A DNA stretch of 64,000 nucleotides from a virus (IMGVR_UViG_3300042922_000265:1-64000); one strand, 5' to 3'; shown: positions 7,794-48,623, counted from the stretch's first letter. Notes: generated by a model from the letters alone, not told the origin. Translations and numbers: made by a program.

Positions 7794-7943
7794 AGGTGAT
7801 GCGGACATAGGGGTGCTGTCCGGGTTTTGTACGCGCTCTACCAGACTGAGCTACACCGGCATGTGGTGCCGGTGGAAGGAATCGAACCTCCGACCTCGCG
7901 CTCCTGATGCGATAACCGAATTAGCGATCGGCCCGCATCACCT
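7794..7943 (-). ncRNA. yrlA: Y RNA, YrlA type (Y1)
   Basis: AGGUGAUGCGG terminal stem, GGGCCGA/AUGUCC Ro helix, then T arm (GGAGG UUCGAUU CCUUC), acceptor hairpin and D arm (UAGCUCAGUCUGGUAGAGC). Confidence 0.9.
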
Positions 7944-7962
7944 TTCCTCTATAAAATTTAGC

Positions 7963-8032
7963 GCACGGTCATGAGAACGCTCTCCGGGTTGTTTCGGCAA
8001 ATGAAGGTAACCGAAGTGCTTGCGGCCCGTGC
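7963..8032 (-). ncRNA. Minimal Y RNA without a tRNA module (Y2)
   Basis: GCACGG stem, GGGCCGC/AUGACC, and UUCGGUU...AACCCGGA as in Y1. Confidence 0.75.
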
Positions 8033-8041
8033 TTGATGATT

Positions 8042-8052
8042 ACTTTACAGGT
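8042..8052 (-). promoter_or_regulatory. Candidate -10 element for the Y2-Y1-Ro60 operon
   Basis: ACCTG-TAAAGT about 10 nt upstream of Y2. Confidence 0.45.
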
Positions 8053-8062
8053 TCTGTAGGGG

Positions 8063-8512
8063 TTACGCAACCGCCTTGGTCCGGGTGTCACACCCGAGCC
8101 GCTTGAACACCACCGCAAGGTCCTCCGCCGTACGCGGCGAGCTACACAGGACGGTGATCGGACCGGAGCCATTGTAGGGCTCCACCCACCTGGCTTCCAC
8201 CGAAATAGCCGTACCGGAGTCGTAGGACTCCCGAACGGTATCCACCAAGACGTGCTCGTCCTTGCGCTCCTGAGCCTTGGCCTTCGCCTTGGCCGCGCTG
8301 GCGAAGTTGCCACCCAAGGTCCACACCGACTTGTCCTGGTACCAGTAGTCCCAGACCCGAGGGCGGTTCTTCCACGTGACGATCGCATAGTCGACCTCGG
8401 CGGTGATAATGGTGCGGATCTCGTCGACAGACGAGGTGGAGTTGTCTTCCGCCCGTGCGGCGGTGATCTCTGTTGCGATGGGACCGGTTGCGGTCTGCTT
8501 ATGCCATTCCAT
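8063..8512 (-). CDS. Hypothetical protein, leaderless
   Basis: CCCTG-TAGAAT lies 7 nt before the ATG. Confidence 0.6.
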   Translation of the reverse strand: MEWHKQTATGPIATEITAARAEDNSTSSVDEIRTIITAEVDYAIVTWKNRPRVWDYWYQDKSVWTLGGNFASAAKAKAKAQERKDEHVLVDTVRESYDSGTAISVEARWVEPYNGSGPITVLCSSPRTAEDLAVVFKRLGCDTRTKAVA

Positions 8513-8522
8513 TGAACAGATT

Positions 8523-9407
8523 CTACAGGGTGTGGTTGCCGGTCTTCGCCTTGCCGTGCCAGTCCTCTACCTGTTCGGCGTACCGAGACGCCTGCGGCGG
8601 CACCGGGACGACGTTGCCGTCATCGCCGGTGGACTGGCCGAACTCACCGAACTTGCTCGTCATCCGGGTGTAGGGGTAGTCGGAGGTCACCGGCTTGACA
8701 CCCAGGGCCTCGTCCGACTCGCGACGCAGCTTGTCGGCGTGCTCGTTCATCTGCTCCTCCGACCACCCCGACATGATGTCGTCGGGGTCATTGAAGGTGG
8801 TGTACGCCTCCGGGGAGTTGTCACCCTTGCCCTCCCAGACGTCCTTGAGGCGCTTGTGCTGGGGCTCGATGTCGGTATCGAACATCTGCACCGCGTCCTC
8901 GGAGGGGCGCAGGTGCTCGTGGGGAGTCTCCTGCACGGTGGTGCCCACGATCTGCGGGAACCGGCGTTGGAACTCCTCGAACGTCATGAACTCCGGCAGG
9001 TCAGCGGGGTTGACTTTCGGCACCTCCAGCTTGGCGGAGATCGATTCATCGGAGTACTGAAACGTCTGCGCGGCGGGCTCCGACGTCTCCCGCAGCTCCT
9101 GGTAGGAATCCTCCGGGATAGTCACCGGCTCGGGCTCGGTGGTCTCCACCGGCTTGTACGGGCCGTACCAGCCCGCCGGGAAGGTGACGACCGGCCACCA
9201 CACGTCATCCCTGACCTTGTAGAAGGCCGTAGTGCCGTCAGCGCCATTGAGCGCGACATTGGCGTCCAGGGTCTGAGTCCCCCAGGAGGTCTCGTCATCG
9301 ACAATCTTGCGGACCCAGATCTCATACCCCCAACCGTCAGGCAGGAGTGCGATACGGCGTCCTGCGGGGTCCGGGGTTGACTGCTGGTGCTGCGGCGCTT
9401 CCGCCAT
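8523..9407 (-). CDS. Acidic low-complexity hypothetical protein
   Basis: Long ORF with GC3-rich codons. Confidence 0.6.
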   Translation of the reverse strand: MAEAPQHQQSTPDPAGRRIALLPDGWGYEIWVRKIVDDETSWGTQTLDANVALNGADGTTAFYKVRDDVWWPVVTFPAGWYGPYKPVETTEPEPVTIPEDSYQELRETSEPAAQTFQYSDESISAKLEVPKVNPADLPEFMTFEEFQRRFPQIVGTTVQETPHEHLRPSEDAVQMFDTDIEPQHKRLKDVWEGKGDNSPEAYTTFNDPDDIMSGWSEEQMNEHADKLRRESDEALGVKPVTSDYPYTRMTSKFGEFGQSTGDDGNVVPVPPQASRYAEQVEDWHGKAKTGNHTL

Positions 9408-9726
9408 GGGTTTTCTCCGATCCACTTGGATTGCGGTACCCCTCACGATATGCGATGAATACCGGGTCCGCCTCGACCCTCTGGCGTCGGCGGCGTGTGA
9501 CAACTTGGGTGCTGAGGTAGGCATGCAGGACGACGAACATCAGTCCGCCGTAGAGAGCCAGATCAACGTATTCGGTGGTGAACCCACCGATGATGATGGT
9601 GGCGAGGATAATCACTCCACCAAGGTCCAGCCAACTAACGGCCTGCGACAGCTTCCTGTCCACCAGGAAGTCCACTACTGAGGTCATGTCGCTCTGCTTC
9701 CTCTCGGGCGATGCGGTTTGCGTCAA
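9337..9726 (-). CDS. Small membrane protein
   Basis: Two hydrophobic segments. Confidence 0.5.
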   Translation of the reverse strand: MTQTASPERKQSDMTSVVDFLVDRKLSQAVSWLDLGGVIILATIIIGGFTTEYVDLALYGGLMFVVLHAYLSTQVVTRRRRQRVEADPVFIAYREGYRNPSGSEKTHGGSAAAPAVNPGPRRTPYRTPA

Positions 9727-9876
9727 GTCGCGCTCGGATCTGCTGGATCTCCTCGGCGCTGAACGGCGGGTGCTCGCTGAACATCATCGTCCTCCTACCT
9801 CTTCAGGTGTGTCGATACCCAAAACACCGGGTGATCCCCTGACTTCAAGATCACCCGGTGTCTGGCATGGCGCTGG

Positions 9877-10848
9877 TTACGCAGGTGCCTGGACCTCGAC
9901 GGCGGCACCAGGGAACAGCTTGCAGGTGCCGGGGGTGACCTGGTTCAGATCGCGGCAGGCGCGGAACTGCGGGGCCAGCGGTCCGTACAGTTCGTTGGTC
10001 AGCGCGATGTCGGCGGCCTTGGTGGCCTCGGCCAGGCGCGTCTTCTCCGCCTGAGACGCCGCTGCAGCTGCGGCACGTTGGGTGCCGTCATCCACGGCGG
10101 TCACCAGGTCGACCACGATGCGCACCGGCTCGCAGTTGAACTGATCGCCGACGCCCGTGGAACCCGATCCGCAGATCAAATCGTTGACCGACCCGGTCAC
10201 CTGCTGGAAGGTCTCAGCGAACCGGTCGCTCATCTCATCACTGACCTGCTGGCGCAGCTCGGGACTGTTGACCTGCCAGATGGGGTCGCCGGTTTGGCTG
10301 ACCGGTCCCTCCACGATGCGCTGCAGGGTCGGGTACATGTTCTCCGCCAGCATGCGGTTCCAGCCCGGTGTGGAGGCGGCCTGAGCGCCCTCTCCGGTGA
10401 ACGCACGCGGGTCAGCAGCCGCCGCGCCATACTTGCCTTCGGCAAAGCCGATGAAGTCACGAATGGGCTCCGGCTGCTGGTTGGGCTGCCAGTACACCGA
10501 CACCCAGACATTGACCGGGGTGCCCTTCTCGGTCAGGGCGCGCAGCGGGCGGTCGGTGTCCTTGGACGGCGCGTTCTGCGGAGCGATGACGTAGTTGCGG
10601 GTCACGCAGGGGAAGACTTTGCCGAAGGACTCGTCCTTGCGGAACTCGACGGTCTGACCCTGGTAGAGGACCTGCTCCAGATCGGCGCTGTTCGGGTTGG
10701 AGTTGCTGTCCAACCCGCCCTTGCCCTGAATGAAGCCACAGAAACTCTGCGGTACGGCGAGTGCCGCATCCTCGTCACAGGCGGTGAGGCCGAACACCAG
10801 CAATCCCGCGATGGGGATGCCGATGGCGGCCTTGATGATCTTCTTCAT
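9877..10848 (-). CDS. Lipoprotein, possibly SPFH/band-7-like
   Basis: Signal peptide with lipobox LTAC; C-terminal Ala-rich coiled coil. Confidence 0.6.
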   Translation of the reverse strand: MKKIIKAAIGIPIAGLLVFGLTACDEDAALAVPQSFCGFIQGKGGLDSNSNPNSADLEQVLYQGQTVEFRKDESFGKVFPCVTRNYVIAPQNAPSKDTDRPLRALTEKGTPVNVWVSVYWQPNQQPEPIRDFIGFAEGKYGAAAADPRAFTGEGAQAASTPGWNRMLAENMYPTLQRIVEGPVSQTGDPIWQVNSPELRQQVSDEMSDRFAETFQQVTGSVNDLICGSGSTGVGDQFNCEPVRIVVDLVTAVDDGTQRAAAAAASQAEKTRLAEATKAADIALTNELYGPLAPQFRACRDLNQVTPGTCKLFPGAAVEVQAPA

Positions 10849-10886
10849 GGTGATGTGATTCTCCTTCTCGGGGGGGGGGGGGTGGG

Positions 10887-11654
10887 TTAATCGATGGTGC
10901 GTTGGATGTTGTACTTGTCGAGACTCCAGTCCGCCTGCTCCTCGGCGCGGGCCGCCACCTCCTTCCACTGGGCGCGGCGGCGCACCAGGCGACGGTGCAG
11001 TAGGAACCAGACGACTCCCAGGGCGATCACACCGGCACCAGAAGCGATGCCGATGTACCACTTGGGCGTGAACCGGAAGGACTCGCCGGGTTGGGCGCGC
11101 TGGTCATTGGTCGGCACGGTCGACGGTGGCGGAGGGACCCCTGGAGTGCCGTTGACCGAGCAGTTCGGGGACTCCTCACACGGCACCCCGTTGATGAACA
11201 CCCGCGTGTTGGACTCCCCCGGCGGCGGGGGTGGTGCCTGAGTGCGCCGTGGGTTATCGGCCTGCCACTTGTGGATCTCGTCGATCATCTTGATGATCTG
11301 GTCCACCGGTCGGCGGGTGACGTTGTCGATGCGGTCCAGACGCTCGTCCAGGAACACCTGAGGCACCCAGTCGTTGCCGATCACCGTGACGTTCTTGCCC
11401 TCGGCGTAGAGGAACACCACGCTGGTGTTCTCCACCGGGGCCGTCTCGCCCTTTCCGGTGATGGCCACCTGGATCTCATCCTTGGGGTCCAGACGATCGG
11501 CAATGCGGTTGCGGATCTGCCGAGAGTCGTCGACCGACTCGCTGACGTACACACGGTCCTCATCAGCGTGGGCTTTCGGCAACTGCATGCCGATGATGAA
11601 GGCGAGCACGCAGGCCAGAGCAAGTCCGATCGCGAAACGCCAGCGGCGAGTCAT
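10887..11654 (-). CDS. Membrane-anchored protein
   Basis: Signal peptide (AHA), Pro-rich linker, C-terminal transmembrane helix. Confidence 0.65.
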   Translation of the reverse strand: MTRRWRFAIGLALACVLAFIIGMQLPKAHADEDRVYVSESVDDSRQIRNRIADRLDPKDEIQVAITGKGETAPVENTSVVFLYAEGKNVTVIGNDWVPQVFLDERLDRIDNVTRRPVDQIIKMIDEIHKWQADNPRRTQAPPPPPGESNTRVFINGVPCEESPNCSVNGTPGVPPPPSTVPTNDQRAQPGESFRFTPKWYIGIASGAGVIALGVVWFLLHRRLVRRRAQWKEVAARAEEQADWSLDKYNIQRTID

Positions 11655-12025
11655 CGCCCTGGCGGCTTCTGCTGGAGCCACTCAAAGATCTTCTGACCGA
11701 CGTAGTCCTGGAACGCCTGATCGTTACCGATGAGCGGGTAACGGTCCAGGTGCCCACGCACGCTCTCGATGACCGCCTGCATGTTGGGATGCATCGGAGC
11801 AATCAGCTCGACCTCGTCGGCGGCGGCCTTCTGGATCTTGAACTTGAAGTCCTCCACGGCATCCAGCGCGGCCATCTCCACCATGCGCTTGAAGTCGTAG
11901 TTCTCCTCCAGATGCTTGGCGATCTGCATCTCGATCGCCGCCGCGATGATGTGCTCGGGCAGCGTGATCGTGAGCGTGCCGACCTCGACCTTGACCTTCT
12001 TGCGCTTGAGGACGCCCTTGCTCAC
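11651..12025 (-). CDS. Hypothetical protein
   Basis: Coupled ORF. Confidence 0.6.
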   Translation of the reverse strand: MSKGVLKRKKVKVEVGTLTITLPEHIIAAAIEMQIAKHLEENYDFKRMVEMAALDAVEDFKFKIQKAAADEVELIAPMHPNMQAVIESVRGHLDRYPLIGNDQAFQDYVGQKIFEWLQQKPPGR

Positions 12026-12360
12026 TTCGCGGCCTCGACCCTGATCACCCCGGTGTGGTTGGGATCGTTCTCCAGATCACCCAGGTCGTAGTCACCCTTC
12101 TCGAACTGCTCCTTGAGGTAGCGCAGGTAGTCGACCGGGTGCAGGAAGTTCTGGCCCTTGCGGTCGCTCAGCTCACGCAGGGTCTTCTTGTCGATGTCGA
12201 AGAACACCTCCACGACTAGGCGGCATTCGCCGCCGGTCAGGCGCGCCTTGCGGGCCGAAATGCTGTCGGGGTGCGCCGAGAAGTCGGTCTTGGCCAGAGA
12301 GGTGTCGATGTCACCACCAACGGTCTCCTCCGTGCGCGCGTCCATATCGAACTCAGGCAT
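12022..12360 (-). CDS. Hypothetical protein
   Basis: Coupled ORF with an RBS. Confidence 0.6.
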   Translation of the reverse strand: MPEFDMDARTEETVGGDIDTSLAKTDFSAHPDSISARKARLTGGECRLVVEVFFDIDKKTLRELSDRKGQNFLHPVDYLRYLKEQFEKGDYDLGDLENDPNHTGVIRVEAAK

Positions 12361-12429
12361 GTATAGCGATCCTTTCGTGGGCGGGTTTGGTAATCGCTAT
12401 AACTAGACTACAGGGTCTAGCACCTGGAA

Positions 12430-12969
12430 TCAACCGAGGTTGCGGCGGAGCTTCTCTTCCACGCGGACCTTGACGTCCTTGCCGACGGCACTGGCCCAGA
12501 TGCCGGTGCTCTTGAGGGTGAATCCCCAGAGCTTGACCAACAGCTTGGTGCCGACCTCGGGCTCCTTCTCCGCAAGGGCCTTGCGGGCGGCGGCCTTCTC
12601 CGCAGCGGCTGTGCGCAGGTCTCGTTCGGTCTCCACCTCGAACAGCGTCTCCAGCGAGGCATATCGACCAGCACCAGGCTTCTTGAGAGAGCCATCCTCA
12701 TTGGTGGAGACCTTGGTGTAGAAGTCAGTCACGTCGACCGAGACTGCGGTCTTCTCCGGCAGCTTGCCGGTCAGCCGCATCTCCTCCAGGTCCGCCGTGG
12801 TGAGGTCAGTGGTGCGCAACATGAGCGTGCCGCCCAGGGCTGCCGCGATGCGTTCGCACGCCTGGGACGGGGTAGGGGTGGAGGTGTGGAAGTTCCAGCG
12901 CTTGCCCGCACCGCCACGGGTGCCGAGGTCGTCATTCTGGTACCACTGCTCATTGATGATGCCGGTCAT
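12430..12969 (-). CDS. Hypothetical protein
   Basis: ORF with an RBS. Confidence 0.6.
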   Translation of the reverse strand: MTGIINEQWYQNDDLGTRGGAGKRWNFHTSTPTPSQACERIAAALGGTLMLRTTDLTTADLEEMRLTGKLPEKTAVSVDVTDFYTKVSTNEDGSLKKPGAGRYASLETLFEVETERDLRTAAAEKAAARKALAEKEPEVGTKLLVKLWGFTLKSTGIWASAVGKDVKVRVEEKLRRNLG

Positions 12970-13242
12970 GGGACTATCCCTTCATCGTGGGCCGCAGGTA
13001 CTTTCCTGCTGCCCTCTACCTATTCAGGGGCTACCACGACGTCAGACACAGTGTTGTAGCGCGCCTGCAGGGGATTCACGTAGTCGGTGATGAACTCGAT
13101 CTGCCGCAACGTCTCGTCGTCGCGATGACGTAACGCGTCCAGCTCCAGGTCTACGATCTCCCTGATGTCAGCCAACTCGTTGTCGCTGACCAACTCGGCG
13201 TCGCGGTTCGTGAAAGTGACCACGACGCCTCGGATAGTGATG

Positions 13243-13728
13243 CTAGCCACCGGCCTGGATGACGTAGTCGCCGATGGACACCCGCACATGCGCGGGAATG
13301 GGTCCCTTGGCCGCCGTGAAGGTCTGCATGTGCTGGAGATCGTCGAACCGGATGCTGCGCGGGCCGACGTAGGTCTCCGGGTTCTCCTGCGCGCGCATGT
13401 GCGGCGGGATCTCGTCGTCGTCCAGGTCCGGGACGACCGGCTTGTCATGGACGGGCGGCTGATGGCCTCCGGCCTTCTTGGCGGCGGCTTCCTCCTTGAC
13501 CCGGTGGAAGTCCCTGGGATGGCCTCCGGCCATCTCCATGGTGTTCAGGCAGCCCCGGTGGCAGCGGTAGAAGCCACCCTTCTTGGACTGATAGAAGCCC
13601 TCCCCGGCCCCCTCGGCGATCGAGTGACCGCACAGGAAACACTTGTCGCCCCACTGCAGCGGCGAGAGCCCCTGGGTGGTCTTGGCGGCGGCGGAGTAAC
13701 TACGCGCTGTCGGCTTCTCGTTGGGCAC
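13243..13728 (-). CDS. Hypothetical zinc-binding protein
   Basis: CFLC...CHRGC. Confidence 0.55.
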   Translation of the reverse strand: MPNEKPTARSYSAAAKTTQGLSPLQWGDKCFLCGHSIAEGAGEGFYQSKKGGFYRCHRGCLNTMEMAGGHPRDFHRVKEEAAAKKAGGHQPPVHDKPVVPDLDDDEIPPHMRAQENPETYVGPRSIRFDDLQHMQTFTAAKGPIPAHVRVSIGDYVIQAGG

Positions 13729-13874
13729 GACGCGCCTCCTTCCTGACTCGCTGCGCGCGGTCCGGGAACTTCTCCCGAACTCGCTTGGCGTCCACGCTCT
13801 GGAAGTGCGCGATCTCCTTGTCCAGGAAGCCGTTCACCTTCCCACCGAGACCGGCACTGGACGCATGGCGGGGA

Positions 13875-14363
13875 TCAGGCACTCTTGGACTCCTCGAAAT
13901 GGATGGGCTCGGCGATGGTGATCGCCAGCCGGGTGAACACGAAGAACAACCCGGCGAGACCCAATGACCATAGCCCAGTAGAACCCGATCGCGCCAGATG
14001 GTGGGTGATGCCAATGCCGATGAACCAGGTCGCTGCAGCCAGGCTGTATACCCACATGATCACGTTGTAGAGGTTGTCGGTGCGCGTCCAGGCCAAGCTG
14101 AAGAGGCCGACGAGGCCCAAGGTGGCAATGGCGATCAAGCTGATGCCGACGTTCTGGTATCCACCGAAGAAGTCCTTGGCAGCCTGCCAGTGTTCGGACG
14201 TCAGCTGCTGTGCACCGCCGCTGTAGAGATACTGGCCGAAGGTGGCCAAGATGATGATCTGCAATCCATCGGTGAACCGACCAAGGTTCTTGAGCCAGGT
14301 GAGCCGCCTGTTGCGGATCTCCACCTCATCGATCAGTTGCTCACGGGTGAGCAGCGATACCAT
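13875..14363 (-). CDS. Four-transmembrane membrane protein
   Basis: Hydrophobic helices; GGAGG RBS. Confidence 0.65.
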   Translation of the reverse strand: MVSLLTREQLIDEVEIRNRRLTWLKNLGRFTDGLQIIILATFGQYLYSGGAQQLTSEHWQAAKDFFGGYQNVGISLIAIATLGLVGLFSLAWTRTDNLYNVIMWVYSLAAATWFIGIGITHHLARSGSTGLWSLGLAGLFFVFTRLAITIAEPIHFEESKSA

Positions 14364-14507
14364 CTGGACCTCCGGTCAGCCTCGTCGCGCAGATCTCATT
14401 GGCCTTCTCTGCGGCGGCCAACGGACCTTTGCCCGCAGCATACTCGGCGTCAGCAGCACGCGTCATCCACCAGTAATCATCTTCCCAGGTACCGAGCTTA
14501 GGTCGCT

Positions 14508-14993
14508 TCACTTCGGAAGGATCAGCTTGCTCTTGGGGTCCTCACGGAACTGGCCGGTGTTCGGGTCGATGAAGCCCGCCTTGCCATCGGCCTTGCCGGT
14601 GACGATGTCGTGCTTCATGCGATCGTGGTCGGTCTCTTCCTCGACCTTGGTGCGCCCCGCCAGAGAGATCTGAGGGACGTACAGTGGCACGCCCTCGGCG
14701 AACGGGTTGTTGGGGGTGCCGTCCTCGTTACGGGCTTCCAGCCACTCCACGGTGACCTTCCACCCGATCTCACCGAAGATGTTGGTCGCTTGCTGATTGA
14801 AGTGCTCCGCAGCGTCAGCAGGATCGTCCACCCGCTTCTGCAGCCACATGCTCTGGAGACGCGCGAACGCCTCCTTGATGCGAGGCATCTCAGAGGGGTA
14901 GGGCTCCATGGCCTCCGGCGGCGGAAGCTGCTGGTTAACTGGTGCCGGAGCCCGTCCCGCTCGACTGATTCCGGGTGGCTGAGGTGTGCTCAC
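14508..14993 (-). CDS. Hypothetical protein
   Basis: ORF with an RBS. Confidence 0.6.
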   Translation of the reverse strand: MSTPQPPGISRAGRAPAPVNQQLPPPEAMEPYPSEMPRIKEAFARLQSMWLQKRVDDPADAAEHFNQQATNIFGEIGWKVTVEWLEARNEDGTPNNPFAEGVPLYVPQISLAGRTKVEEETDHDRMKHDIVTGKADGKAGFIDPNTGQFREDPKSKLILPK

Positions 14994-15925: not shown

Positions 15926-15994
15926 TATGCCTCCTTGATCGTGGGTGGGTCTGTAAACATTCTACAGGGTATCAAGAGCGGTGCAAGCTCGTTG

Positions 15995-28468: not shown

Positions 28469-28611
28469 GGTGAACTCCTTACTGAGAGGCTCCAGAACCG
28501 GGGCAGGTATCCCTCCTGCCCCGGCCTGGCCCGTAACCGATCACTCGGCCTCCCCCGTATGGGATACCAGGTCTACGGGTTTAAACGCCCGTGCTGGCGG
28601 GGGTTAGGGTC

Positions 28612-41951: not shown

Positions 41952-42310
41952 CCAACATCGATCGCGTGGCCCAGAACTACGACAATGTGGTGCCGTTCGC
42001 TCGGCGCACCGACCCGGAGACCTCCCACGAGGCTGTTCCGGCGCGCCAGCGCCGCGAAAGCATCCAACTGGAACTGCTGCTGGCCTATGCGCGGGCCTAC
42101 CCCCAGGGCCTCACCGATGAGGAGGCCATGGAGGCCGCAGGTTTCGATCTGATCGACGACGGCCACCGTCGCCGCTGTGGTGACCTCCGCGCCGCCGGGG
42201 AGATCGAGTATCGGGGTGAGAAGCGGGCCACTGGACGCACCGGGAAGAACCGAATGGTCTGCTACGCCACCCACCTCGGTGCCGACCGGCTAGACCGGGT
42301 GTTCGGCTAA
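41948..42310 (+). CDS. Putative winged-helix protein
   Basis: ARRTDPETSHEA, GLTDEE and RRCGDL family motifs. Confidence 0.6.
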   Translation: MTNIDRVAQNYDNVVPFARRTDPETSHEAVPARQRRESIQLELLLAYARAYPQGLTDEEAMEAAGFDLIDDGHRRRCGDLRAAGEIEYRGEKRATGRTGKNRMVCYATHLGADRLDRVFG

Positions 42311-42573
42311 GCCGCCATCGCCTTGACCATCACCGACGGCAGGATGGTGACGGTACGCCAGCCGCCATCTTCCAGGTCGGCGGCCATCCACTGCAGCAGG
42401 CCGCTGCCCCGCGTGGAGCGCAGCTTGTGGTCAATACCAGCGACTGGGGTGCCCAGGAAGGGGTCCAGCAGAACCATACCCTCCTTGATTTGATCGGCGC
42501 GGACCTCGACAAATTCCGGGGTGCTCAACGCGTCAATGTTGGCGAAGGAGTCGAGGATGGCTGCTTTGCTCAT
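42307..42573 (-). CDS. Hypothetical protein, leaderless
   Basis: TTGTGT-17 nt-TAGAAT, then 6 nt to the ATG. Confidence 0.6.
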   Translation of the reverse strand: MSKAAILDSFANIDALSTPEFVEVRADQIKEGMVLLDPFLGTPVAGIDHKLRSTRGSGLLQWMAADLEDGGWRTVTILPSVMVKAMAA

Positions 42574-42634
42574 GATTCTATTCTATCATGCTAGAACGAG
42601 CAACACAAGGATGGAGGTGCCGTAGGCTGGGGCC

Positions 42635-43555
42635 ATGAAGCTTCATATCGGTCAGTCTGACCTGGTCTCACTCAAGCCTGCCGACCGCGCTGTGGTCCTC
42701 GGACAGATCAAGGACTTTGGGTTCGACAAGGTCCGTTTCGAGGTGCCCTTCCATGCCTGGACCTGGCCGGGGAGCAAGTACAACTGGACGCCGGTGCGCA
42801 AGACGGCGGAAGACCTGTATTCGGCGGGTCTGGAGGCGTTGCCTGTCCTGGGTGCTCATCGACCGCTGTTCTGGAAGCCGACCGCGAAGCAGTACGGTGC
42901 CTGGTGCGCCACCGCCGTCTCGGCAGTCCGTGCGTCCCTGCCGGATCTCACCGAGGTGGAGGTGTGGAACGAGCCGAACCTGATCAACTTCTGGTCCAAG
43001 GCCGATCCCACCACCTTCTACCCGTACGCCCAGGCCGCCTACGAGTCGATCAAGGCCCTGTGGCCCAACCTCACCGTGGTGCTGGCCGGTATGGCCGCCG
43101 CCGCGACCGGACCGCAGTGGCCCTTCATCGGTGGCCCCAAGGACCCGGTGAGCTTCGTTCTGGCCCTCCAGAAGGCCGCTGGGGGCAAGAAGTTCTACGA
43201 CCGGCTGGCCTACCACCCCTACAACCTCAACGAGGGCTTCCAGCTGGCCAAGCCCGACCCGGATCTGTTCGGCATCAAGGCCCTGAGCCGCATGCAGGCG
43301 CTGACGCCAGGCAACGAGGTCCTGGTGACCGAGATCGGCTACCAGACCACCGGCAAGCTCGGGGACTACCACGACCTGGAGAAGAGCCTGCACCTGATCG
43401 GTGAGCGCGACGAGGTCTACCTGTACTGCTGGCGCGACGCCGACCGGGAGAAGTTCGGGCTGGTGGACGGCAACAACACGCCCAAGCGGCCCTACTACGA
43501 CCTGGTGAAACAGCTGGTGGGGCGTCCGGGTCTCGATCCCGGTATTCAAGCTTAA
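42635..43555 (+). CDS. Clan GH-A glycoside hydrolase (GH5/GH39-like)
   Basis: EVWNEPN acid/base, YHPY and VTEIG nucleophile. Confidence 0.85.
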   Translation: MKLHIGQSDLVSLKPADRAVVLGQIKDFGFDKVRFEVPFHAWTWPGSKYNWTPVRKTAEDLYSAGLEALPVLGAHRPLFWKPTAKQYGAWCATAVSAVRASLPDLTEVEVWNEPNLINFWSKADPTTFYPYAQAAYESIKALWPNLTVVLAGMAAAATGPQWPFIGGPKDPVSFVLALQKAAGGKKFYDRLAYHPYNLNEGFQLAKPDPDLFGIKALSRMQALTPGNEVLVTEIGYQTTGKLGDYHDLEKSLHLIGERDEVYLYCWRDADREKFGLVDGNNTPKRPYYDLVKQLVGRPGLDPGIQA

Positions 43556-43590
43556 AAGGCAAGAGTGATAGCCGCGTTCACCAACGCCCC
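43515..43590 (-). tRNA. tRNA-Lys(UUU) with encoded CCA and an atypical T loop
   Basis: GGGGCGU/ACGCCCC-ACCA; anticodon loop CUUUUAA. Confidence 0.75.
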
Positions 43591-43641
43591 ATGACGGGAG
43601 CGGGGACTATTTATAGCGGCGCATGGTCTCAGGATAACAGA

Positions 43642-44148
43642 TTACTCCGCAGCGCTGACGTTGATCGTTACATCACCGTCAGGGTATCTAGCAATGATTT
43701 CTTTAGCCCAGGCCAGCGCGTCGGCAGCCCGAATGCCTGCGGGCTGTGGCTTGACCCACAGCTCCAGGTTCTCGATCCGGTTGTCGTCCTTGACGCCATA
43801 CCGGTGGTGGACGTTCTCGTCGGGCAGCAGGTGCCTGCCCAGGTGGTCCTCCATCACCAGGATGTGCTCGAACACGTACTTGCAGCTGGGGGTGGCGCGA
43901 GGGTGGTTGGGTGCCCACACCATCACGTACCCCTTCTTGTGACGGGTCTTACCGCCCTTCCAGTTGCCGTTGTTGGTGCCGGTGAACTTCGCACATGACG
44001 TGCACGCGGCAGAAGCCTTTCGCTTGCGCTCACCGCAGGCGCAGAGGTCGTAACGCTCCGGTGCGTTGGACCTGCAGCGAGGACACTTCTTGTGTGCGCT
44101 GGAGGGCTTGAACTCTTGATCACACTGGACGCAAATACGACTCACCAC
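43642..44148 (-). CDS. HNH endonuclease
   Basis: EHILVME..LGR.L...ENVHH..GVKDDNRIENL. Confidence 0.9.
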   Translation of the reverse strand: MVSRICVQCDQEFKPSSAHKKCPRCRSNAPERYDLCACGERKRKASAACTSCAKFTGTNNGNWKGGKTRHKKGYVMVWAPNHPRATPSCKYVFEHILVMEDHLGRHLLPDENVHHRYGVKDDNRIENLELWVKPQPAGIRAADALAWAKEIIARYPDGDVTINVSAAE

Positions 44149-44184
44149 GGCTCCGATGTTACCGGTGGAGCCGTGGTGAGTCTA

Positions 44185-44617
44185 TGGTGGAGCTGCCGAC
44201 ATCCGAGAGTCGGGTCCTAGCGTCTATCCTTCTGCGTTCTACGGGCGTAGTCCTGTTCACCGTTTTGCCTCCGGTAGGCCAGACTGCCCAGAGGGTTCGT
44301 TGTCTTCGGTACTTCGACCTTGCGGTCGTTGATCGCCCCTCCGACGTCGCGGGTATCTAATCCGCTAGGCGAGTTCGCTGCCACTATCTTTGAAACCCCC
44401 GGCGCTGCGTGGCAGCAGGCTAACCGGGTGGCTGGTTACTGGTTAGACCAGCACCGAGTCGTTGGCGAATGCCTCGATCTCGGCGAAGTCGGCCTCAGTG
44501 ACCGTGGCGTCCTCATGGGTGCCGTTTATAGTTTGGCGCGTTCACTCAAAGTAGAAGTGCGCCCAACACTTGCCCGCTGTTCAGTTTTCAATCGGCCAGT
44601 CGAAGCCTGTCAGCCCC
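44185..44617 (-). ncRNA. ssrA: tmRNA; tag (A)GTHEDATVTEADFAEIEAFANDSVLV* at 44443-44523
   Basis: 5' GGGGCUGACAGGCUUCGAC, 3' CAGCUCCACCA, G3-U, and UAAAC before the resume codon. Confidence 0.92.
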
Positions 44618-44721
44618 TCGTGGTGACCGTTGTGGAGGCCCCAGGTGGTCATTCCTGGTGGTATATCGCCTGGACCCTCGCGGGCCACCTCCGAATTACT
44701 CAATCAGTGTAGCACATAGAA

Positions 44722-44874
44722 CTACAGGGCGTCGAGACGGTAGAACTCCTCGACCTCATCCTGGTGGATGGCCTGCTCCATGGCGATCTCGGTCTGTGTC
44801 TCACGCTTGTCTGCAGCGCGGTCCCTACGGTCATCACCACAGCATCCACAACCGGGTCGTCTGGTGCGTAGCAT
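44722..44874 (-). CDS. Small hypothetical protein
   Basis: 50-aa ORF between tRNA-Arg and the tmRNA. Confidence 0.4.
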   Translation of the reverse strand: MLRTRRPGCGCCGDDRRDRAADKRETQTEIAMEQAIHQDEVEEFYRLDAL

Positions 44875-44884
44875 TCTGCTCACG

Positions 44885-44957
44885 TACCCCCGGAGAGGAT
44901 CGAACTCCCGGCACCCGAGGTAGAAACTCGGTGCTCTGTCCACTGAGCTACGGAGGC
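44885..44957 (-). tRNA. tRNA-Arg(UCU)
   Basis: Anticodon loop UUUCUAC. Confidence 0.88.
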
Positions 44958-44961
44958 TTAG

Positions 44962-45033
44962 ATGGGGTAGCTGGACTCGAACCAACACTGCCCGGTGCCA
45001 AAAACCGGTGGGCTGCCATTACCCCATACCCCA
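44962..45033 (-). tRNA. tRNA-Gln(UUG)
   Basis: Anticodon loop UUUUGGC. Confidence 0.88.
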
Positions 45034-45069
45034 AGGCGAGATGCTCCACAGTGTAGTACCAGATCGTTG

Positions 45070-45142
45070 CACCGCTGGGAGGAATCGAACCCCCGACTCT
45101 GCGCTTAGGACGCGCCAGCTCTATCCACTGAGCTACAGCGGT
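45070..45142 (-). tRNA. tRNA-Arg(CCU)
   Basis: Anticodon loop GUCCUAA. Confidence 0.85.
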
Positions 45143-45145
45143 AGG

Positions 45146-45217
45146 TGCAGCCTCCCCGAATCCAACGGAGGTCTCCCAGGTGTTTCACTGGGCGCTCTGG
45201 CACTGAGCTATAGCCGC
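45146..45217 (-). ncRNA. Atypical tRNA-like RNA (swapped D/T elbow, 8-nt anticodon loop)
   Basis: D loop AGUGCCA, T loop UUGGAUU, anticodon loop UGAAACAC. Confidence 0.65.
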
Positions 45218-45222
45218 ATGAT

Positions 45223-45293
45223 GCAGTGCGCACAACCCGTGACGCCGCACCCCCATGAGTGGAGGTGACCAGACTCGAACTGGCCCCCGCTGC
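45223..45293 (-). ncRNA. Circularly permuted tRNA mimic without a Ro stem
   Basis: GCAG, T arm, acceptor hairpin CACCUCCA/UGGGGGUG, D-like arm, CUGC. Confidence 0.6.
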
Positions 45294-45295
45294 TG

Positions 45296-45364
45296 TGCCC
45301 TCGGCAGGAGTTGAACCTGCCAGCTCGCCTTCGGAGGGCGTGCGCCAGATCCGCTGGCGAAGGC
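45296..45364 (-). tRNA. tRNA-Arg(CCG) with a short D arm
   Basis: Anticodon loop CUCCGAA. Confidence 0.7.
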
Positions 45365-45428
45365 ATAGGGCTGATGTCGGTATTGCCCGCCGACACGGTA
45401 CAGATCGGCCTGTCAGCCCAAGCCAGGG

Positions 45429-45500
45429 TGTCCCTACGAGGTATCGAACCTCGGACCTCCTCCATGTCATAGAGGCGCTCTACCACTGAGCTACAAGGAC
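45429..45500 (-). tRNA. tRNA-Val(GAC)
   Basis: Anticodon loop AUGACAU. Confidence 0.88.
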
Positions 45501-45503
45501 ATG

Positions 45504-45611
45504 AACACACGGGCATGGGAACGAGGCCGGAGAGGAGGGCTCGAACCTCCATGATTCCTGGTGAGGGAATTTTTAACCAAGTTAACCGACTACTCAATCG
45601 GCCCGTGCGTT
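45504..45611 (-). ncRNA. Y-RNA-like element Y3
   Basis: GGGCCGA...GUCGGUU / AUGCCC; anticodon-like arm followed by a T arm. Confidence 0.75.
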
Positions 45612-45613
45612 TG

Positions 45614-45687
45614 TATCCCGAGCAGGACTCGAACCTGCGGCTTCCACGTTCGTAGCGTGGCACTCTATCCATCTGAGCTACCGGGAC
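45614..45687 (-). tRNA. tRNA-Arg(ACG)
   Basis: Anticodon loop CUACGAA. Confidence 0.9.
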
Positions 45688-45693
45688 ATAGGA

Positions 45694-45828
45694 GAATGGG
45701 CATTTAGCCGTTACCGGCAAGGGACTGGACTCGAACCAGCGACCTCCACCTTAAAGGGTGGCGCTCTACCAACTGAGCTACCCCGCAGAAGGTTGGTTGC
45801 GGGAGAACCGATAACTATCGGCCCATTC
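45694..45828 (-). ncRNA. Y-RNA-like element Y4 carrying a whole permuted tRNA
   Basis: GAAUGGGCCGA...UCGGUU / AUGCCCAUUC; acceptor hairpin, then D, anticodon and T arms. Confidence 0.8.
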
Positions 45829-45832
45829 AACG

Positions 45833-45906
45833 TAGCCGTCCAGGGAGTCGAACCCCGTATCTCCGCCATATCAGGGCGGCGCGTTTACCACTTACGCCAC
45901 ACGGCC
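45833..45906 (-). tRNA. tRNA-Ile(GAU)
   Basis: Anticodon loop CUGAUAU. Confidence 0.88.
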
Positions 45907-45914
45907 ATAGATGC

Positions 45915-46090
45915 GTGATAGGGAGCTTCTCAGGGCTCCGAGCCATTGGACACCAGTGCGCCGACCGTCGAGTCATTGGACGCCTGGGCCTGACAGCGGG
46001 TTACGAGACTATCGGTTCCATCCACCAGCGCTGACTGGCTTCACCCCACATTGACGCCCGGTCGGGAACGCCACACTCTGTCACTATCAC
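45915..46090 (-). ncRNA. Unassigned structured RNA
   Basis: Closed by GUGAUAG/CUAUCAC; internal 16-nt near-repeat. Confidence 0.4.
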
Positions 46091-46118
46091 AGGAGGCTGT
46101 ACGGGCCTCCCGTTCGCG

Positions 46119-46191
46119 TACCCATGGATGGTCTCGAACCATCTGCCTCGCCGTTATGAGCAGCGCGCTCTGCCAGATGAGCTACACGGGC
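46119..46191 (-). tRNA. tRNA with CAU anticodon (elongator Met or Ile2)
   Basis: Anticodon loop CUCAUAA. Confidence 0.85.
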
Positions 46192-46197
46192 TTGACC

Positions 46198-46317
46198 TGA
46201 GAATGCGAGCACCAGCCACACCACATCCTGCCCTACCGGCGTCCCGGTGGGGTGTCGCTGCAAGGTTTGCGACCCCTGCGTTGACGCGGAAGTCGGGAAT
46301 CGAACCCGAACCTCTCA
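46198..46317 (-). ncRNA. Permuted tRNA mimic with an insertion, without a Ro stem
   Basis: UGAGA, T arm UCGGG UUCGAUU CCCGA, acceptor hairpin, D-like arm, extra hairpin, UCUCA. Confidence 0.55.
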
Positions 46318-46320
46318 TTG

Positions 46321-46395
46321 CGACTCTGATGGGATTTGAACCCACGGCCTCCACCGTGACAGGGTGGCGATCACTCCAGACTGATCTACAGAGCC
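46321..46395 (-). tRNA. tRNA-Asp(GUC)
   Basis: Anticodon loop CUGUCAC. Confidence 0.9.
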
Positions 46396-46435
46396 ATAGC
46401 TTGGAGGGACCAGGACACGTTCTCCTGGACCTTTG

Positions 46436-46508
<73 letters not shown>

Positions 46509-46581
46509 ATTGTCCTGTTTCGCTGGACCAGCGACAGGGTTGCCACATCCTGCTATATGCCGGGAGACCCGGACGGCGACG

Positions 46582-46653
46582 AGCTGAATCGGAGGATTGA
46601 ACTCCGGGCCTTTCCCATACCAAGGGAACGCTCTACCACTGAGCTAATCCAGC
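46582..46653 (-). tRNA. tRNA-Thr(GGU)
   Basis: Anticodon loop UUGGUAU. Confidence 0.88.
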
Positions 46654-46712
46654 ATTAGTGCAGCAACCCCGAGGGGCTCCTGGTCCACCCAGGTTCACCG
46701 GGTGTAGCTGCG

Positions 46713-46784
46713 AGCCTCAGGCCAGGATCGAACTGGCGTCTTCGCTTTACAAGAGCGGTGTCCGTACCACTGGACCACAGAGGC
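46713..46784 (-). tRNA. tRNA-Thr(UGU)
   Basis: Anticodon loop CUUGUAA. Confidence 0.88.
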
Positions 46785-46819
46785 ATACACCCTTGCTGCC
46801 GTCAGGCCCTGGGGGATTG

Positions 46820-46892
46820 AGCTGGAGGCGAGAATCGAACTCGCTTCTGCGCGTTACGAGGGCGCTGCGTTGACCATTCACGCTTCACCAGC
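46820..46892 (-). tRNA. tRNA-Thr(CGU)
   Basis: Anticodon loop CUCGUAA. Confidence 0.85.
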
Positions 46893-46963
46893 AGGTGGGG
46901 AGCTTTCGCGGGGTCGTTACACCGCAGGCGCTTGTGTTGTCGTCTCCCCTATGGACCGCAACG

Positions 46964-47036
46964 TAGTTCGGACGGGAATCGAACCCGCGTGTCTCGCCTT
47001 GAAAGGGCAAGTGGCTAGCCAGCACACCACCGAACC
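46964..47036 (-). tRNA. tRNA-Glu(UUC)
   Basis: Anticodon loop CUUUCAA. Confidence 0.88.
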
Positions 47037-47041
47037 ATTGA

Positions 47042-47173
47042 TGAAGGGCATAAAAGTGCAGCCGATGTTTTTAGGTGTTCTACCACTAAACTACGAGGTC
47101 CGGGGACCCCGGCGGGAATCGAACCCGCGCAACCCGCTTGACAGGCGATAACCGACATGCTGTCGGCCCTTCA
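47042..47173 (-). ncRNA. Y RNA, YrlA type (Y5)
   Basis: UGAAGGGCCGA...GUCGGUU / AUGCCCUUCA; T arm, acceptor hairpin, D arm. Confidence 0.85.
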
Positions 47174-47176
47174 ACG

Positions 47177-47249
47177 TAGACCCGGCAGGGATCGAACCTG
47201 CGACATTCCGATTAAGAGTCGGAAGCTCTACCAACTGAGCTACGAGTCC
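47177..47249 (-). tRNA. tRNA-Lys(CUU)
   Basis: Anticodon loop CUCUUAA. Confidence 0.9.
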
Positions 47250-47322
47250 ATACTGTGGGTTTTCCCGGTCCCACCCGGTCCATTTGTCACCGGTAACGGA
47301 CAAACCGGCACCAACGTGTACG

Positions 47323-47395
47323 TAGTCGATGCAGGGATCGAACCTGCGGCCTCCCCGGTGTGAACGGGGCACTCTTCCAACTGAGCTAATCGACC
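47323..47395 (-). tRNA. tRNA-Val(CAC)
   Basis: Anticodon loop UUCACAC. Confidence 0.88.
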
Positions 47396-47589
47396 ATTGG
47401 AGTCTTGGGGAGCACGTCACCGCTCCTCTGCCAGGGTATGAGCCCGGAGTGCTTGCCCTCTTGATCCGACCTGGCAGGGCCAGATCGAAAAGACACAGGT
47501 GACTGAGTCACAGGCCGTTGCCGGGTCGGCTGCCACCGAACACCGAACTTTCCTGTGCGCCACCATGGACGACTTACACCACCGCAACG

Positions 47590-47661
47590 TGCCGACACCA
47601 GGGCTCGAACCTGGTTCTCTGAGGCTTCAACTCAGCGCTTCTCCACTCAAGCTGTGACGGC
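47590..47661 (-). tRNA. tRNA-Phe(GAA)
   Basis: Anticodon loop UUGAAGC. Confidence 0.82.
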
Positions 47662-47745
47662 ATACTTCGGATTACGCGCCGTTTCCCGCGAGGATCTCTA
47701 ACCCGTCCTACGGGGGCACGCATAGGGTTGAACCCCCGTGCTACG

Positions 47746-47818
47746 TGGAACTGGTGGGGATCGAACCCACTGCCTCCGGTATGCCATACCGGCGCTCTAC
47801 CAACTGAGCTACAGCCCC
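47746..47818 (-). tRNA. tRNA-Ala(GGC)
   Basis: Anticodon loop AUGGCAU; G3-U70. Confidence 0.9.
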
Positions 47819-47971
47819 ATTGAAGTTTGATGCCCTGTACCGGGTGGGGAGAGCATGTTCCCCGGATACCCATTGCACCACCCCAGGACATCCAGGCGGT
47901 CCGCGTACCGTTCGGTCAGTGTCGACCCCGACTCGGGTGGTAAACCCATGCGCCCCCATAGGGTCCTAACG

Positions 47972-48042
47972 AGCGCCTGACAGGAATCGAACCTGCGTAG
48001 CCAGCTTGGAAGGCTGGAGCACGACCACTATGCCACAAGCGC
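47972..48042 (-). tRNA. tRNA-Gly(UCC)
   Basis: Anticodon loop CUUCCAA. Confidence 0.88.
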
Positions 48043-48131
48043 AATGTCCACGTTCGGTCGTCTTGGCGGTGGACGCGCCTCAATGAGGGGATCTAAACCC
48101 TGGACCTTCTACACAACTATACCACTTCAAG

Positions 48132-48207
48132 TGGGGAGACCGACCGGAATCGAACCGGCGAAGGCCAGGGTCACATCCTGACTGCACAACCAGCAGTGCA
48201 CGGCCTC
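48132..48207 (-). tRNA. tRNA-His(GUG)
   Basis: Anticodon loop AUGUGAC; C73 and encoded CCA. Confidence 0.8.
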
Positions 48208-48209
48208 AG

Positions 48210-48283
48210 TAGCTCGTACGGGACTCGAACCCGTCATCTCCGCCTTGAGAGGGCGGCGAGATTACCATCTACTCCAACGAGCC
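48210..48283 (-). tRNA. tRNA-Glu(CUC)
   Basis: Anticodon loop CUCUCAA. Confidence 0.9.
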
Positions 48284-48342
48284 ATTGGGGAGCCTTCACA
48301 GGGCGCTCCCGAACCCTTTAGTCCGTTATCAGGACCATAACG

Positions 48343-48414
48343 AGCGCCTACCTGGAATCGAACCAGGGAATAGCGGGTTTGCAATCCGCCGCGTTGCCAT
48401 TTCGCCATAGACGC
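48343..48414 (-). tRNA. tRNA-Cys(GCA)
   Basis: Anticodon loop UUGCAAA; U73. Confidence 0.88.
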
Positions 48415-48418
48415 AGAG

Positions 48419-48491
48419 TGGAGATAATGGGAATTGAACCCACCACACCGATCTTGCAAGGATCAGTCGCCCCCAAGGAACATGTACCCCC
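48419..48491 (-). tRNA. tRNA-Ala(UGC)
   Basis: Anticodon loop CUUGCAA; G3-U70. Confidence 0.85.
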
Positions 48492-48496
48492 ATTGT

Positions 48497-48623
48497 GATC
48501 TTGGATATTGCTTGAGGCCGGAACGCCCCGCCAGCACGGTTTCCCGTTGGGGCTGTCCAGACCATGGGTGGTCTGGACTGGAATCGAACCAGTGATAACC
48601 GACTACTCGGTCGACCCAAGATC
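48497..48623 (-). ncRNA. Y-RNA-like element Y6
   Basis: GAUCUUGGGUCGA...GUCGGUU / AUAUCCAAGAUC; T arm, acceptor hairpin, expanded D-like region. Confidence 0.78.

Follow-up and report, generated by a model that had tools for sequence, protein, structure and literature searches.

A phage Ro60 gene and six RNAs with a shared Y-RNA-type handle, four of them in the tRNA operon

The Ro60 gene, the tRNA operon and six handle elements

We analyzed the first 64 kb (64,000 nucleotides, referred to as the window) of the 167,373-bp virus record IMGVR_UViG_3300042922_000265, which possesses direct terminal repeats, and characterized a Ro60 gene together with six RNA elements, Y1 to Y6, that share one structural handle. 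The Ro60/Rsr orthologue (549 aa; 6095..7744, minus strand) matched the Pfam families TROVE (8.1e-49) and vWA_Ro60 (1.1e-40), and it was matched end to end with X. laevis Ro60 (1yvp, 5.9e-93) and D. radiodurans Rsr (2nvo, 3.3e-91). Judged from these alignments, the phage Ro60 is full length and canonical. The protein was 78.6% identical to the Ro60 of Mycobacterium phage Phabba (genus Myrnavirus), and it shared approximately 50% identity with the Ro-like proteins of about 200 cluster C1 mycobacteriophages of the Bxz1 type. These identities indicate that the window phage is Myrna-like. The gene is the single TROVE locus in the whole 167-kb genome. The tRNA/tmRNA operon (43515..49114, minus strand), identified with ARAGORN (27 tRNA genes and a tmRNA) and Rfam, hosts Y3, Y4, Y5 and Y6. 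At gathering thresholds, the Rfam search of the window returned the tRNAs and the tmRNA only, and neither YrlA nor Y_RNA was reported.

Exactly six sites in the window matched the pattern GGG[CT]CG-N5-14-TCGGTT, and each of them lies on the minus strand; Markov shuffles predicted 0.115 matches per strand. A preliminary description of this DNA had placed six elements at these sites, and their presence is confirmed by the pattern count and by the handle model described below, in which they are the six best matches. Y2 (7963..8032) is a minimal, handle-only RNA of 70 nt and the first gene of a Y2-Y1-Ro60 unit, and Y1 (7794..7943) is an RNA of the YrlA type; they lie 218 nt upstream of Ro60 and 49 nt upstream of its start codon, respectively. 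Y5 (45504..45611), Y3 (45694..45828), Y4 (47042..47173; a second YrlA-type RNA) and Y6 (48497..48623) are on the same strand as the sole TROVE gene at a distance of 37.8–40.9 kb, in agreement with the earlier claim that four elements reside in the tRNA operon far from rsr.

In RNA sense, the six elements have a common layout of an element-specific terminal stem, a 5′ box, a spacer of 6–8 nt and UCGGUU. The 5′ box (GGGCCGA, GGGCCGC or GGGUCGA) opposes AUGCCC, AUGUCC, AUGACC or AUAUCC near the 3′ end, and the UCGG of the second helix pairs with CCGG or UCGG located upstream of the 3′ box. Helix 1 of the handle leads from the terminal stem into a bulged-C helix, in which GGGYCGR faces A-Y-R-Y-CC (the Ro box); it is followed by an internal loop and by helix 2, which ends with UCGG/CCGG and is succeeded by UUAYC. 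The element-specific terminal stems, the opposed Ro boxes and the UCGG/CCGG pairing all held as they had been described. Folding of the single sequences gave structures more stable than those of shuffled sequences for five of the six elements, with minimum free energy (MFE) z-scores between −2.0 and −4.7 (Y5, −3.3; Y6, −4.7); the exception was Y2 (−0.9).

Two open reading frames, 7969–8388 (minus strand; no PHROG match) and 7774–7974 (plus strand), overlap Y2 and Y1. Consensus scans for promoters and terminators were uninformative, and a megablast search with the Ro-proximal region gave no match among public phages, a set from which near-identical records may be missing.

Covariation of the handle, linkage to TROVE genes and layout in relatives

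A pattern scan of IMG/VR gave many contigs with several tandem matches. The alignment behind R1, a covariance model of the handle, contained 16 minimal elements of 65–90 nt, of which 13 stemmed from uncultured phages and one, Y2, from the window; the remaining two belonged to Phabba and Myrna. For a two-helix structure of 21 pairs, 94.9% of the cells in this alignment were paired and 12 pairs had double-sided changes. The covariation score was 0.51 versus 0.19 for shuffled alignments, and the paired fraction dropped to 36–43% when the partners were slid by 1–3 columns. Similar values were obtained with 72 R1 matches from viral contigs, in which 94.8% of the cells were paired (36–44% when the partners were slid) and 17 of 18 pairs were changed on both sides. 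Helix 1 was 95–99% paired, with double changes in 7–9 of its pairs. The pair beside the bulged C was C-G in 43 and U-A in 29 of the 72 sequences and was unpaired in none. The C-G to U-A change that the preliminary description had noted in Y6 is real, and it is a family-wide rule. Among the 20 elements of cluster C alone, 88.4% of the cells were paired, and the pair flanking UCGG/CCGG was G-C in 12, A-U in four, U-A in three and G-U in one, with no unpaired case.

In all six elements, complementarity links the CCGR of the Ro box, the helix-2 UCGG and the 3′ CCGG to one another, and a local CCGR/UCGG hairpin could compete with both helices. This hairpin was formable in 96% of the cells, and its covariation was no better than that of shuffled alignments, so it is unsupported. 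It may represent a switch or a by-product of the conserved bases.

R1 was run over the window with filters off. The six best matches were 7962–8033 (Y2, 54.6 bits), 45506–45609 (Y5, 36.2 bits), 7798–7939 (Y1, 33.7 bits), 45693–45829 (Y3, 29.2 bits), 47041–47174 (Y4, 22.5 bits) and 48498–48622 (Y6, 20.7 bits). The seventh-ranked match, at 14.5 bits, was a plain G+C hairpin after Ro60, and nothing above 12.7 bits was found in a further 100 kb of the genome. Because the six elements ranked on top and the rest of the searched genome was empty, the genome appears to carry six handle RNAs and one Ro60 gene. A separate genome search with the RNA model, which recovered only two of the six elements in their own genome, was not used for counts. 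Matches to a looser pattern at 28484–28554 of the window and at 157016–157041 of the genome were rejected as non-members. The spurious seventh match corresponds to a G+C-rich hairpin with a perfect 8-bp stem (6052..6081, minus strand), 14 nt past the Ro60 stop codon. Although missed by the consensus scan for terminators, it is a possible site at which the Y2-Y1-Ro60 transcript ends.

We examined the co-occurrence of handle elements with TROVE genes, as the preliminary description had proposed. A TROVE gene was present in all 23 viral contigs with at least two motif matches and in seven of nine further R1-positive contigs, the two without being fragments (44% and 62% complete). Forty contigs had a pattern match and no R1 match, and two of them carried TROVE. 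In both of these the match lay beside Ro60, which indicates that they hold real elements missed by R1; with these two removed, TROVE accompanied none of 38 chance pattern matches. Overall, 30 of 32 model- or descriptor-positive viral contigs carried TROVE. The loose pattern GGYCG...YCGGTT was as frequent as its reversed control, and it was therefore used solely to seed model searches. The preliminary description had also named an equal frequency of the distal elements in related phages without Ro60 as an outcome that would speak against it; this was not what the two control phages showed. With filters off, the best R1 scores were 15.1 bits in Wildcat (23 tRNAs and a tmRNA) and 14.0 bits in Bongo (approximately 20 tRNAs), which is noise, and neither phage contained a handle RNA; these controls are mycobacteriophages of the same host that lack TROVE and are not close relatives of the window phage. 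These results indicate that the handle family tracks Ro60.

Phabba and Myrna have the same 2+4 arrangement as the window: in both genomes, a pair of handle RNAs lies shortly upstream of Ro60, and the other four sit in the tRNA array. The six orthologue sets from the three genomes contain compensatory changes in the handles and in the insert stems. Such changes relative to Phabba and Myrna were found in the T and acceptor-like stems of Y1, in the mini hairpin of Y4 and in the first hairpin of Y5 (C-G to A-U). The Ro box of Y4 is GGGCCGA/AUGCCC in the window versus GGGUCGA/AUAUCC in Phabba and Myrna, which is likewise compensatory. Phage ET08 (cluster C1; used by Chen et al.) has a 3+2 arrangement of three handle RNAs upstream of Ro60 and two distal ones. 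The distal pair fills the gaps between tRNA-Met and tRNA-Cys and between tRNA-Val and tRNA-Lys exactly, and the element between tRNA-Met and tRNA-Cys is the positional counterpart of Y6. Each distal RNA of ET08 recurred in about 200 phage records at 90–100% identity, and none of the records listed had a feature annotated at the match. A 58-codon open reading frame of ET08, gp219 (1294–1467 of locus L134), overlies two handle RNAs (1193–1338 and 1371–1442 of the same locus) and is probably not a gene.

The conservation of the distal elements bears on whether they are decaying, functionless duplicates of the Ro60-adjacent Y RNAs. The lower R1 scores of Y4 and Y6 and the resemblance of the inserts to partial tRNAs would suit such decay. 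However, the compensatory changes preserve the helices across the window, Phabba and Myrna, the distal pair of ET08 is kept in about 200 records with its gaps filled exactly, and the MFE z-scores extend from −2.0 to −4.7. We consider decay extremely unlikely.

In other phages, the distance between Ro60 and the handle RNAs varies. Gordonia phage Sixama (1492–4593 of locus L135) has, from Ro60 on, tRNA-Asn, the tmRNA, a handle RNA, tRNA-Arg, a handle RNA, tRNA-Gln, a handle RNA and tRNA-Ile. In cluster C, the corresponding arrangement is split by approximately 40 kb, and the order in Sixama may be its undivided form. Of the handle RNAs in Streptomyces phage BoomerJR, one is upstream of Ro60 and one near tRNAs approximately 9 kb off; in most of the uncultured phages, the handle RNAs form a tandem array of 3–8 beside Ro60 that is free of tRNAs. 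The 40-kb separation in cluster C is unusual and looks like a split of an ancestral unit of Ro60, Y RNAs and tRNAs. On contigs of uncultured phages, tandem arrays of 4–8 RNAs with mixed inserts directly beside TROVE were observed at L094 467–1679, L111 1064–2382, L038 5108–5989, L026 7164–7876 and L016 8915–9537.

The location of Y3–Y6 also allows an explanation independent of the phage Ro60, in which the distal four are punctuation for the processing or stability of the tRNA transcript, or are bound by the host Rsr or another protein, and share the handle through descent from YrlA only. Published Y RNAs (PMC4201824) and nearly all arrays in this analysis lie within a few kb of Ro60, and the published Y RNA search had its best matches within 4 kb of it (PMC4201824); the distal four are 38–41 kb away. 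Moreover, the distal RNAs are flush with tRNAs, and M. smegmatis has its own Rsr and YrlA (PMC4201824). On the other hand, the distal copies on both sides of the C1/C2 split, over which Ro60 is approximately 50% identical, retain the exact Ro-box bases and the covarying bulge pair, and the two tRNA-rich mycobacteriophages without Ro60 that were examined have no such elements. The handle RNAs of Sixama are interleaved with tRNAs directly downstream of Ro60, and because these interleaved RNAs adjoin Ro60, the distance in cluster C looks like a rearrangement and not a change of partner. A role of the distal four apart from Ro60 is very unlikely on these grounds.

Inserts and relation to known Y RNAs

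The inserts of the window elements represent five designs on one shared Y-RNA-type handle; the preliminary description had claimed at least four cargo architectures. The designs are minimal, permuted T-acceptor-D (YrlA type, two elements), D-anticodon-T, an anticodon-like hairpin with a T arm, and a T arm with other hairpins. Y2 has no insert. Y1 contains a small U-turn hairpin, a T arm, a closed acceptor-like stem-loop and a D arm, and Y4 contains a mini hairpin with the loop CUGUCAA, a T arm, a closed acceptor-like stem and a D arm. In Y3, a closed hairpin is followed by a tRNA-order domain of a D arm, an anticodon arm with a 6-nt loop and a T arm. Y5 has a 5-bp hairpin with a 7-nt loop and then a T-arm-like hairpin, and Y6, the element with the U-A variant of the Ro box, has a T-arm-like hairpin, a long hairpin and more hairpins. 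The Y4 loop CUGUCAA (47130–47145, minus strand) is constant in the three Myrna-like phages, and its stem shows a compensatory change from G-C to U-A.

The inner part of Y3 (45716–45786) scored 48.2 bits on the Rfam tRNA model (RF00005), and ARAGORN reported a 2-nt 'anticodon' for it. This part departs from a tRNA cloverleaf with a 7-nt anticodon loop and free acceptor ends: its loop has 6 nt, the anticodon called has 2 nt, and the handle encloses the domain together with a competing upstream hairpin. Comparison of the inserts with the tRNAs of the phage itself revealed no clear donor; the inner domain of Y3 was closest to tRNA-Gly(GCC) by a crude local score. A rough, regex-based sorting of 100 family members gave 47 minimal elements, 26 with a T loop only, 17 with the T..D order, four with the D..T order and six others. 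These counts indicate that mixed cargo on one handle is the rule and not an oddity of the window phage. Among the T-loop members, the T arm is frequently preceded by a hairpin with a 3–5-bp stem and a 7-nt loop, the middle triplets of which are varied and anticodon-like. Where the longest-stem hairpin had a 7-nt loop, U was at position 2 and a purine at position 6 in ten of ten cases.

In an alternative reading, the inserts would be decoys that bait host tRNA-targeting nucleases or toxins (such as VapC, MazF or anticodon nucleases), with the handle and Ro60 mainly stabilizing the bait or delivering the enemy to degradation. Charging of these tRNA bodies or parts is precluded by a sealed acceptor or by a 6-nt anticodon loop, and the U2 and purine 6 of the 7-nt loops before the T arm, together with their varied triplets, resemble anticodon loops. 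The location of the RNAs in the tRNA operon would couple their synthesis to that of the tRNAs that they might shield. However, a U-turn in a 7-nt loop is not specific to anticodons, since T loops have one too, and the 'anticodon' varies between orthologues: the Y3 loop is CUUUAA in the window and Myrna versus CUUGAUC in Phabba, and the Y5 loop is CUCACCA in the window versus CUCAUAA in Phabba and Myrna. Furthermore, 47 of the 100 family members have no insert, and no nuclease partner is known. Decoys of this kind are distinctly unlikely to be what the inserts are for.

With regard to known families, the elements were compared with Rfam YrlA (RF02553), as the preliminary description had suggested. 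Local matches were obtained for the tRNA-like parts of Y1 (36.8 bits, E 1.5e-6) and Y4 (33.5 bits), covering model positions 23–87 only, and none of the six elements attained the gathering score of 69 bits. The published YrlA locus of ET08 is likewise under the RF02553 threshold. Neither RF01656 nor the Y_RNA family matched the window's own elements at E values up to 10.

Chen et al. (2014) described the conserved YrlA motifs GNCGAAN0-1G and YUAY and likened the former to the GGUCCGA contacted by Xenopus Ro60 (PMC4201824). Five of the six window elements contain GNCGA (GCCGA or GUCGA) and Y2 has GCCGC; none of the six has the second A of GNCGAAN0-1G. After the stem, Y3 has UUCUC, and the other five elements have UUAUC, UUACC or UUAAC. 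In all six, the ends pair into a long stem with the conserved bulged-C helix. The second, variable module distal to the Ro60 stem takes the five designs given above. Y1 and Y4 have the permuted order of YrlA (T arm, closed acceptor, D arm); Y2 has no insert, Y3 has D before T, and Y5 and Y6 have a T arm only. Wang et al. (2018) stated that Y RNAs are modular, with a Ro60 module and an effector module, and that the YrlA stem leading to the Ro60 module is equivalent to an anticodon stem (10.1101/312249).

A search of bacterial genomes for related loci with the Ro60 protein found nothing, and bacterial rsr loci were obtained by a DNA pattern scan of bacterial genomes. The same handle adjoins rsr in Jiangella, Spirillospora, Spongiactinospora, Methylobacterium and a Nocardioides metagenome-assembled genome (MAG). 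With R1, the three loci with an rsr flank in Spirillospora, Spongiactinospora and Methylobacterium each had a short and a long RNA, which matches the published YrlA/YrlB arrangement; one RNA was found in Jiangella and three in the Nocardioides MAG. Two short contigs filed as bacterial (L231 and L262; the Nocardioides MAG and one other) contain a Ro60 fragment, 1–3 handle RNAs and 9–12 tRNAs, and may be phage or prophage DNA binned with bacteria.

The 63-nt Y RNA of Jiangella endophytica beside rsr (L171 706–769, minus strand) scored 36.2 bits (E 1.5e-6) on Rfam ceN72-3_ceN74-2 (RF01656), the threshold of which is 38. The RF01656 family comprises nematode stem-bulge RNAs, which we take to be Y RNA homologues. 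The common layout is GGnCCGGAG, a second helix, GGUUAUC and a 3′ CAC...GACC. This likeness suggests that the bacterial and phage handle and the eukaryotic Y or stem-bulge handle are recognizably alike in sequence. The YrlA local matches, the bacterial rsr neighbors and the near-threshold RF01656 score indicate that the handle of the window elements is a Y RNA handle.

The system resembles YrlA/YrlB with Rsr in several respects: a canonical Ro60 gene is closely preceded on its own strand by two Y RNAs, one short and one long, a 5′ GNCGA and a YUAY-like sequence after the stem occur in five of the six elements each, the long RNA has the permuted T-acceptor-D tRNA mimic, the connecting stem corresponds to an anticodon stem, and the same handle occurs in ET08, one of the phages of Chen et al. 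It differs in that the window genome has six RNAs instead of one or two, four of which are approximately 40 kb away among tRNAs, and in that three inserts are unlike that of YrlA (tRNA order; hairpin and T arm; T arm and other hairpins). The terminal stem with the bulged-C helix, the internal loop, the second helix and GUUAUC are shared with metazoan Y RNAs and nematode stem-bulge RNAs; unlike the window RNAs, the Y RNAs of eukaryotes are encoded by individual Pol III genes and have effector domains of the loop type, not tRNA mimics in a tRNA operon.

Thermus phage phiLo has a phage-encoded Ro60 and two Y-like RNAs just upstream, Yrl1 and Yrl2, which form a ternary complex with Ro60 and the host PNPase in vitro (PMC12135203). 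This binding supports a tether model for phages. In contrast to the window, phiLo has two RNAs only, both adjacent to Ro60 and defined by a bulge CGAA motif, and neither tRNA-operon copies nor varied tRNA-like inserts have been reported for it. D. radiodurans Yrn1 and Yrn2 (in the RYPER complex; PMC4201824, 10.1101/312249) likewise represent more than one Y RNA per Ro60, with an effector module that tethers Ro60 to the exoribonuclease PNPase. Yrn1 has a tRNA-order T arm and a 6-nt 'anticodon' loop, as Y3 does; Yrn1 and Yrn2 adjoin rsr, unlike Y3–Y6 among the tRNAs. GOLLD is a large structured non-tRNA RNA inside tRNA arrays of Mycobacterium and its phages (Morgado et al. 2020, via PMC9569102), and mascRNA is a tRNA-like RNA freed by RNase P (mentioned in 10.1101/312249). 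Both are unrelated to the window RNAs in sequence and structure and have no link to Ro60, and the analogy is one of location and processing only.

Proposed processing, function and significance

The distal RNAs are packed tightly between tRNA genes. Y6 begins 3 nt past tRNA-Met; Y4 begins 2 nt past tRNA-Lys and ends 5 nt ahead of tRNA-Glu; Y3 begins 3 nt past tRNA-Ile and ends 6 nt ahead of tRNA-Arg; and Y5 begins 1 nt past tRNA-Arg and ends 2 nt ahead of tRNA-Val. Because the distal RNAs sit 1–6 nt from the flanking tRNAs, tRNA processing probably frees Y3–Y6. M. smegmatis YrlA is a substrate for RNase P and for CCA addition (Chen et al., PMC4201824). As read from the sequence, an encoded CCA is absent from all four tRNAs just upstream of Y3–Y6. 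The genome contains a PolyA_pol/CCA-adding-type nucleotidyltransferase (E 6.9e-34) outside the window (G000:C1:127305–127679, minus strand), and RtcB is absent from it. Between Y6 and tRNA-Cys, a tRNA-shaped stretch (48419–48492, minus strand) that ARAGORN did not call has an acceptor-like stem, an odd D region, an anticodon-type loop CUUGCAA (UGC, Ala) and a good T arm. Its Rfam match is merely 25 bits, of the tRNA-Sec type, and a similar stretch lies 3′ of the Y6 counterpart in Phabba.

The common structure, its covariation and conservation, and its association with TROVE genes are direct results; from here on, we infer the following course of transcription, processing, Ro60 binding and effector action. 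Y2 and Y1 are probably co-transcribed with Ro60, and Y3–Y6 are probably part of the tRNA operon transcript. Cleavage behind the discriminator base of the preceding tRNA, together with RNase P cleavage at the following tRNA, would give a Y RNA with overhangs of a few nt. The handle would then dock each RNA on the phage's own Ro60 ring. In the YrlA-type RNAs, helix 2 stands where a tRNA has its anticodon stem, and the insert is a tRNA body with a sealed acceptor end. The inserts would most likely act in the manner published for Y RNAs, linking Ro60 to host proteins that bind tRNA or degrade RNA (PNPase, for example) and gating access to the Ro60 cavity. Because the inserts would tether and gate, one Ro60 protein could serve several infection tasks. 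The whole reading, in which the six elements are Y RNAs for the phage Ro60, the distal four are freed by tRNA processing, and the inserts tether or gate, has in our estimate a probability of about 75%.

Several points weigh against this interpretation. The elements used for the covariation analysis were chosen by a descriptor or model that demanded part of the pairing, and the paired percentages are somewhat inflated for that reason. In cluster C, small internal loops often disrupt the three outer pairs of helix 2, Y4 and Y6 reach 20–23 bits only on R1, and the gathering score of RF02553 is beyond all six elements. Every cluster C phage seen carries Ro60, so that the linkage of the distal copies to Ro60 is inseparable from shared ancestry within the cluster. 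In addition, the host M. smegmatis's own Rsr could be the partner instead of, or alongside, the phage protein (PMC4201824).

A more elaborate version, which we regard as unlikely, is that a single Ro60 ring takes up, one after another, various handle-sharing RNAs, each tRNA-shaped or anticodon-loop-like insert capturing a different host tRNA-binding factor (defense nucleases, toxins or processing enzymes). Such a bait set would be made in step with the phage tRNAs, with which it shares an operon. If this were true, the Ro60 particle would be a programmable hub for anti-defense or RNA surveillance.

The concept of a Ro60 module joined to an effector module has been published (10.1101/312249; PMC4201824), and a phage Ro60 with an adjacent YrlA is already known; the present case is an extension and not a new system. 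In the searchable literature we found no account of six such RNAs per genome, of non-YrlA inserts on the same handle, of distal copies in a tRNA operon or of arrayed phage Y RNAs; an earlier mention is possible in the supplementary tables of Chen et al. 2014 or in the 2020 Annual Review on bacterial Ro60.

Conservation of Ro60 and Y RNAs extends from bacteria to humans, and Ro60 is an autoantigen in lupus. The phage lineage described here offers a natural series of one handle with at least five inserts and of orthologues with compensating mutations. As cluster C mycobacteriophages are amenable to engineering and can be grown on M. smegmatis, the binding partners could be found insert by insert. 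The annotation of about 200 deposited cluster C genomes can be corrected, as they hold at least two unannotated Y-type RNA genes in their tRNA arrays. Furthermore, the arrays of up to eight RNAs beside Ro60 in many uncultured phages indicate that multi-RNA Ro60 particles appear to be common in phages.

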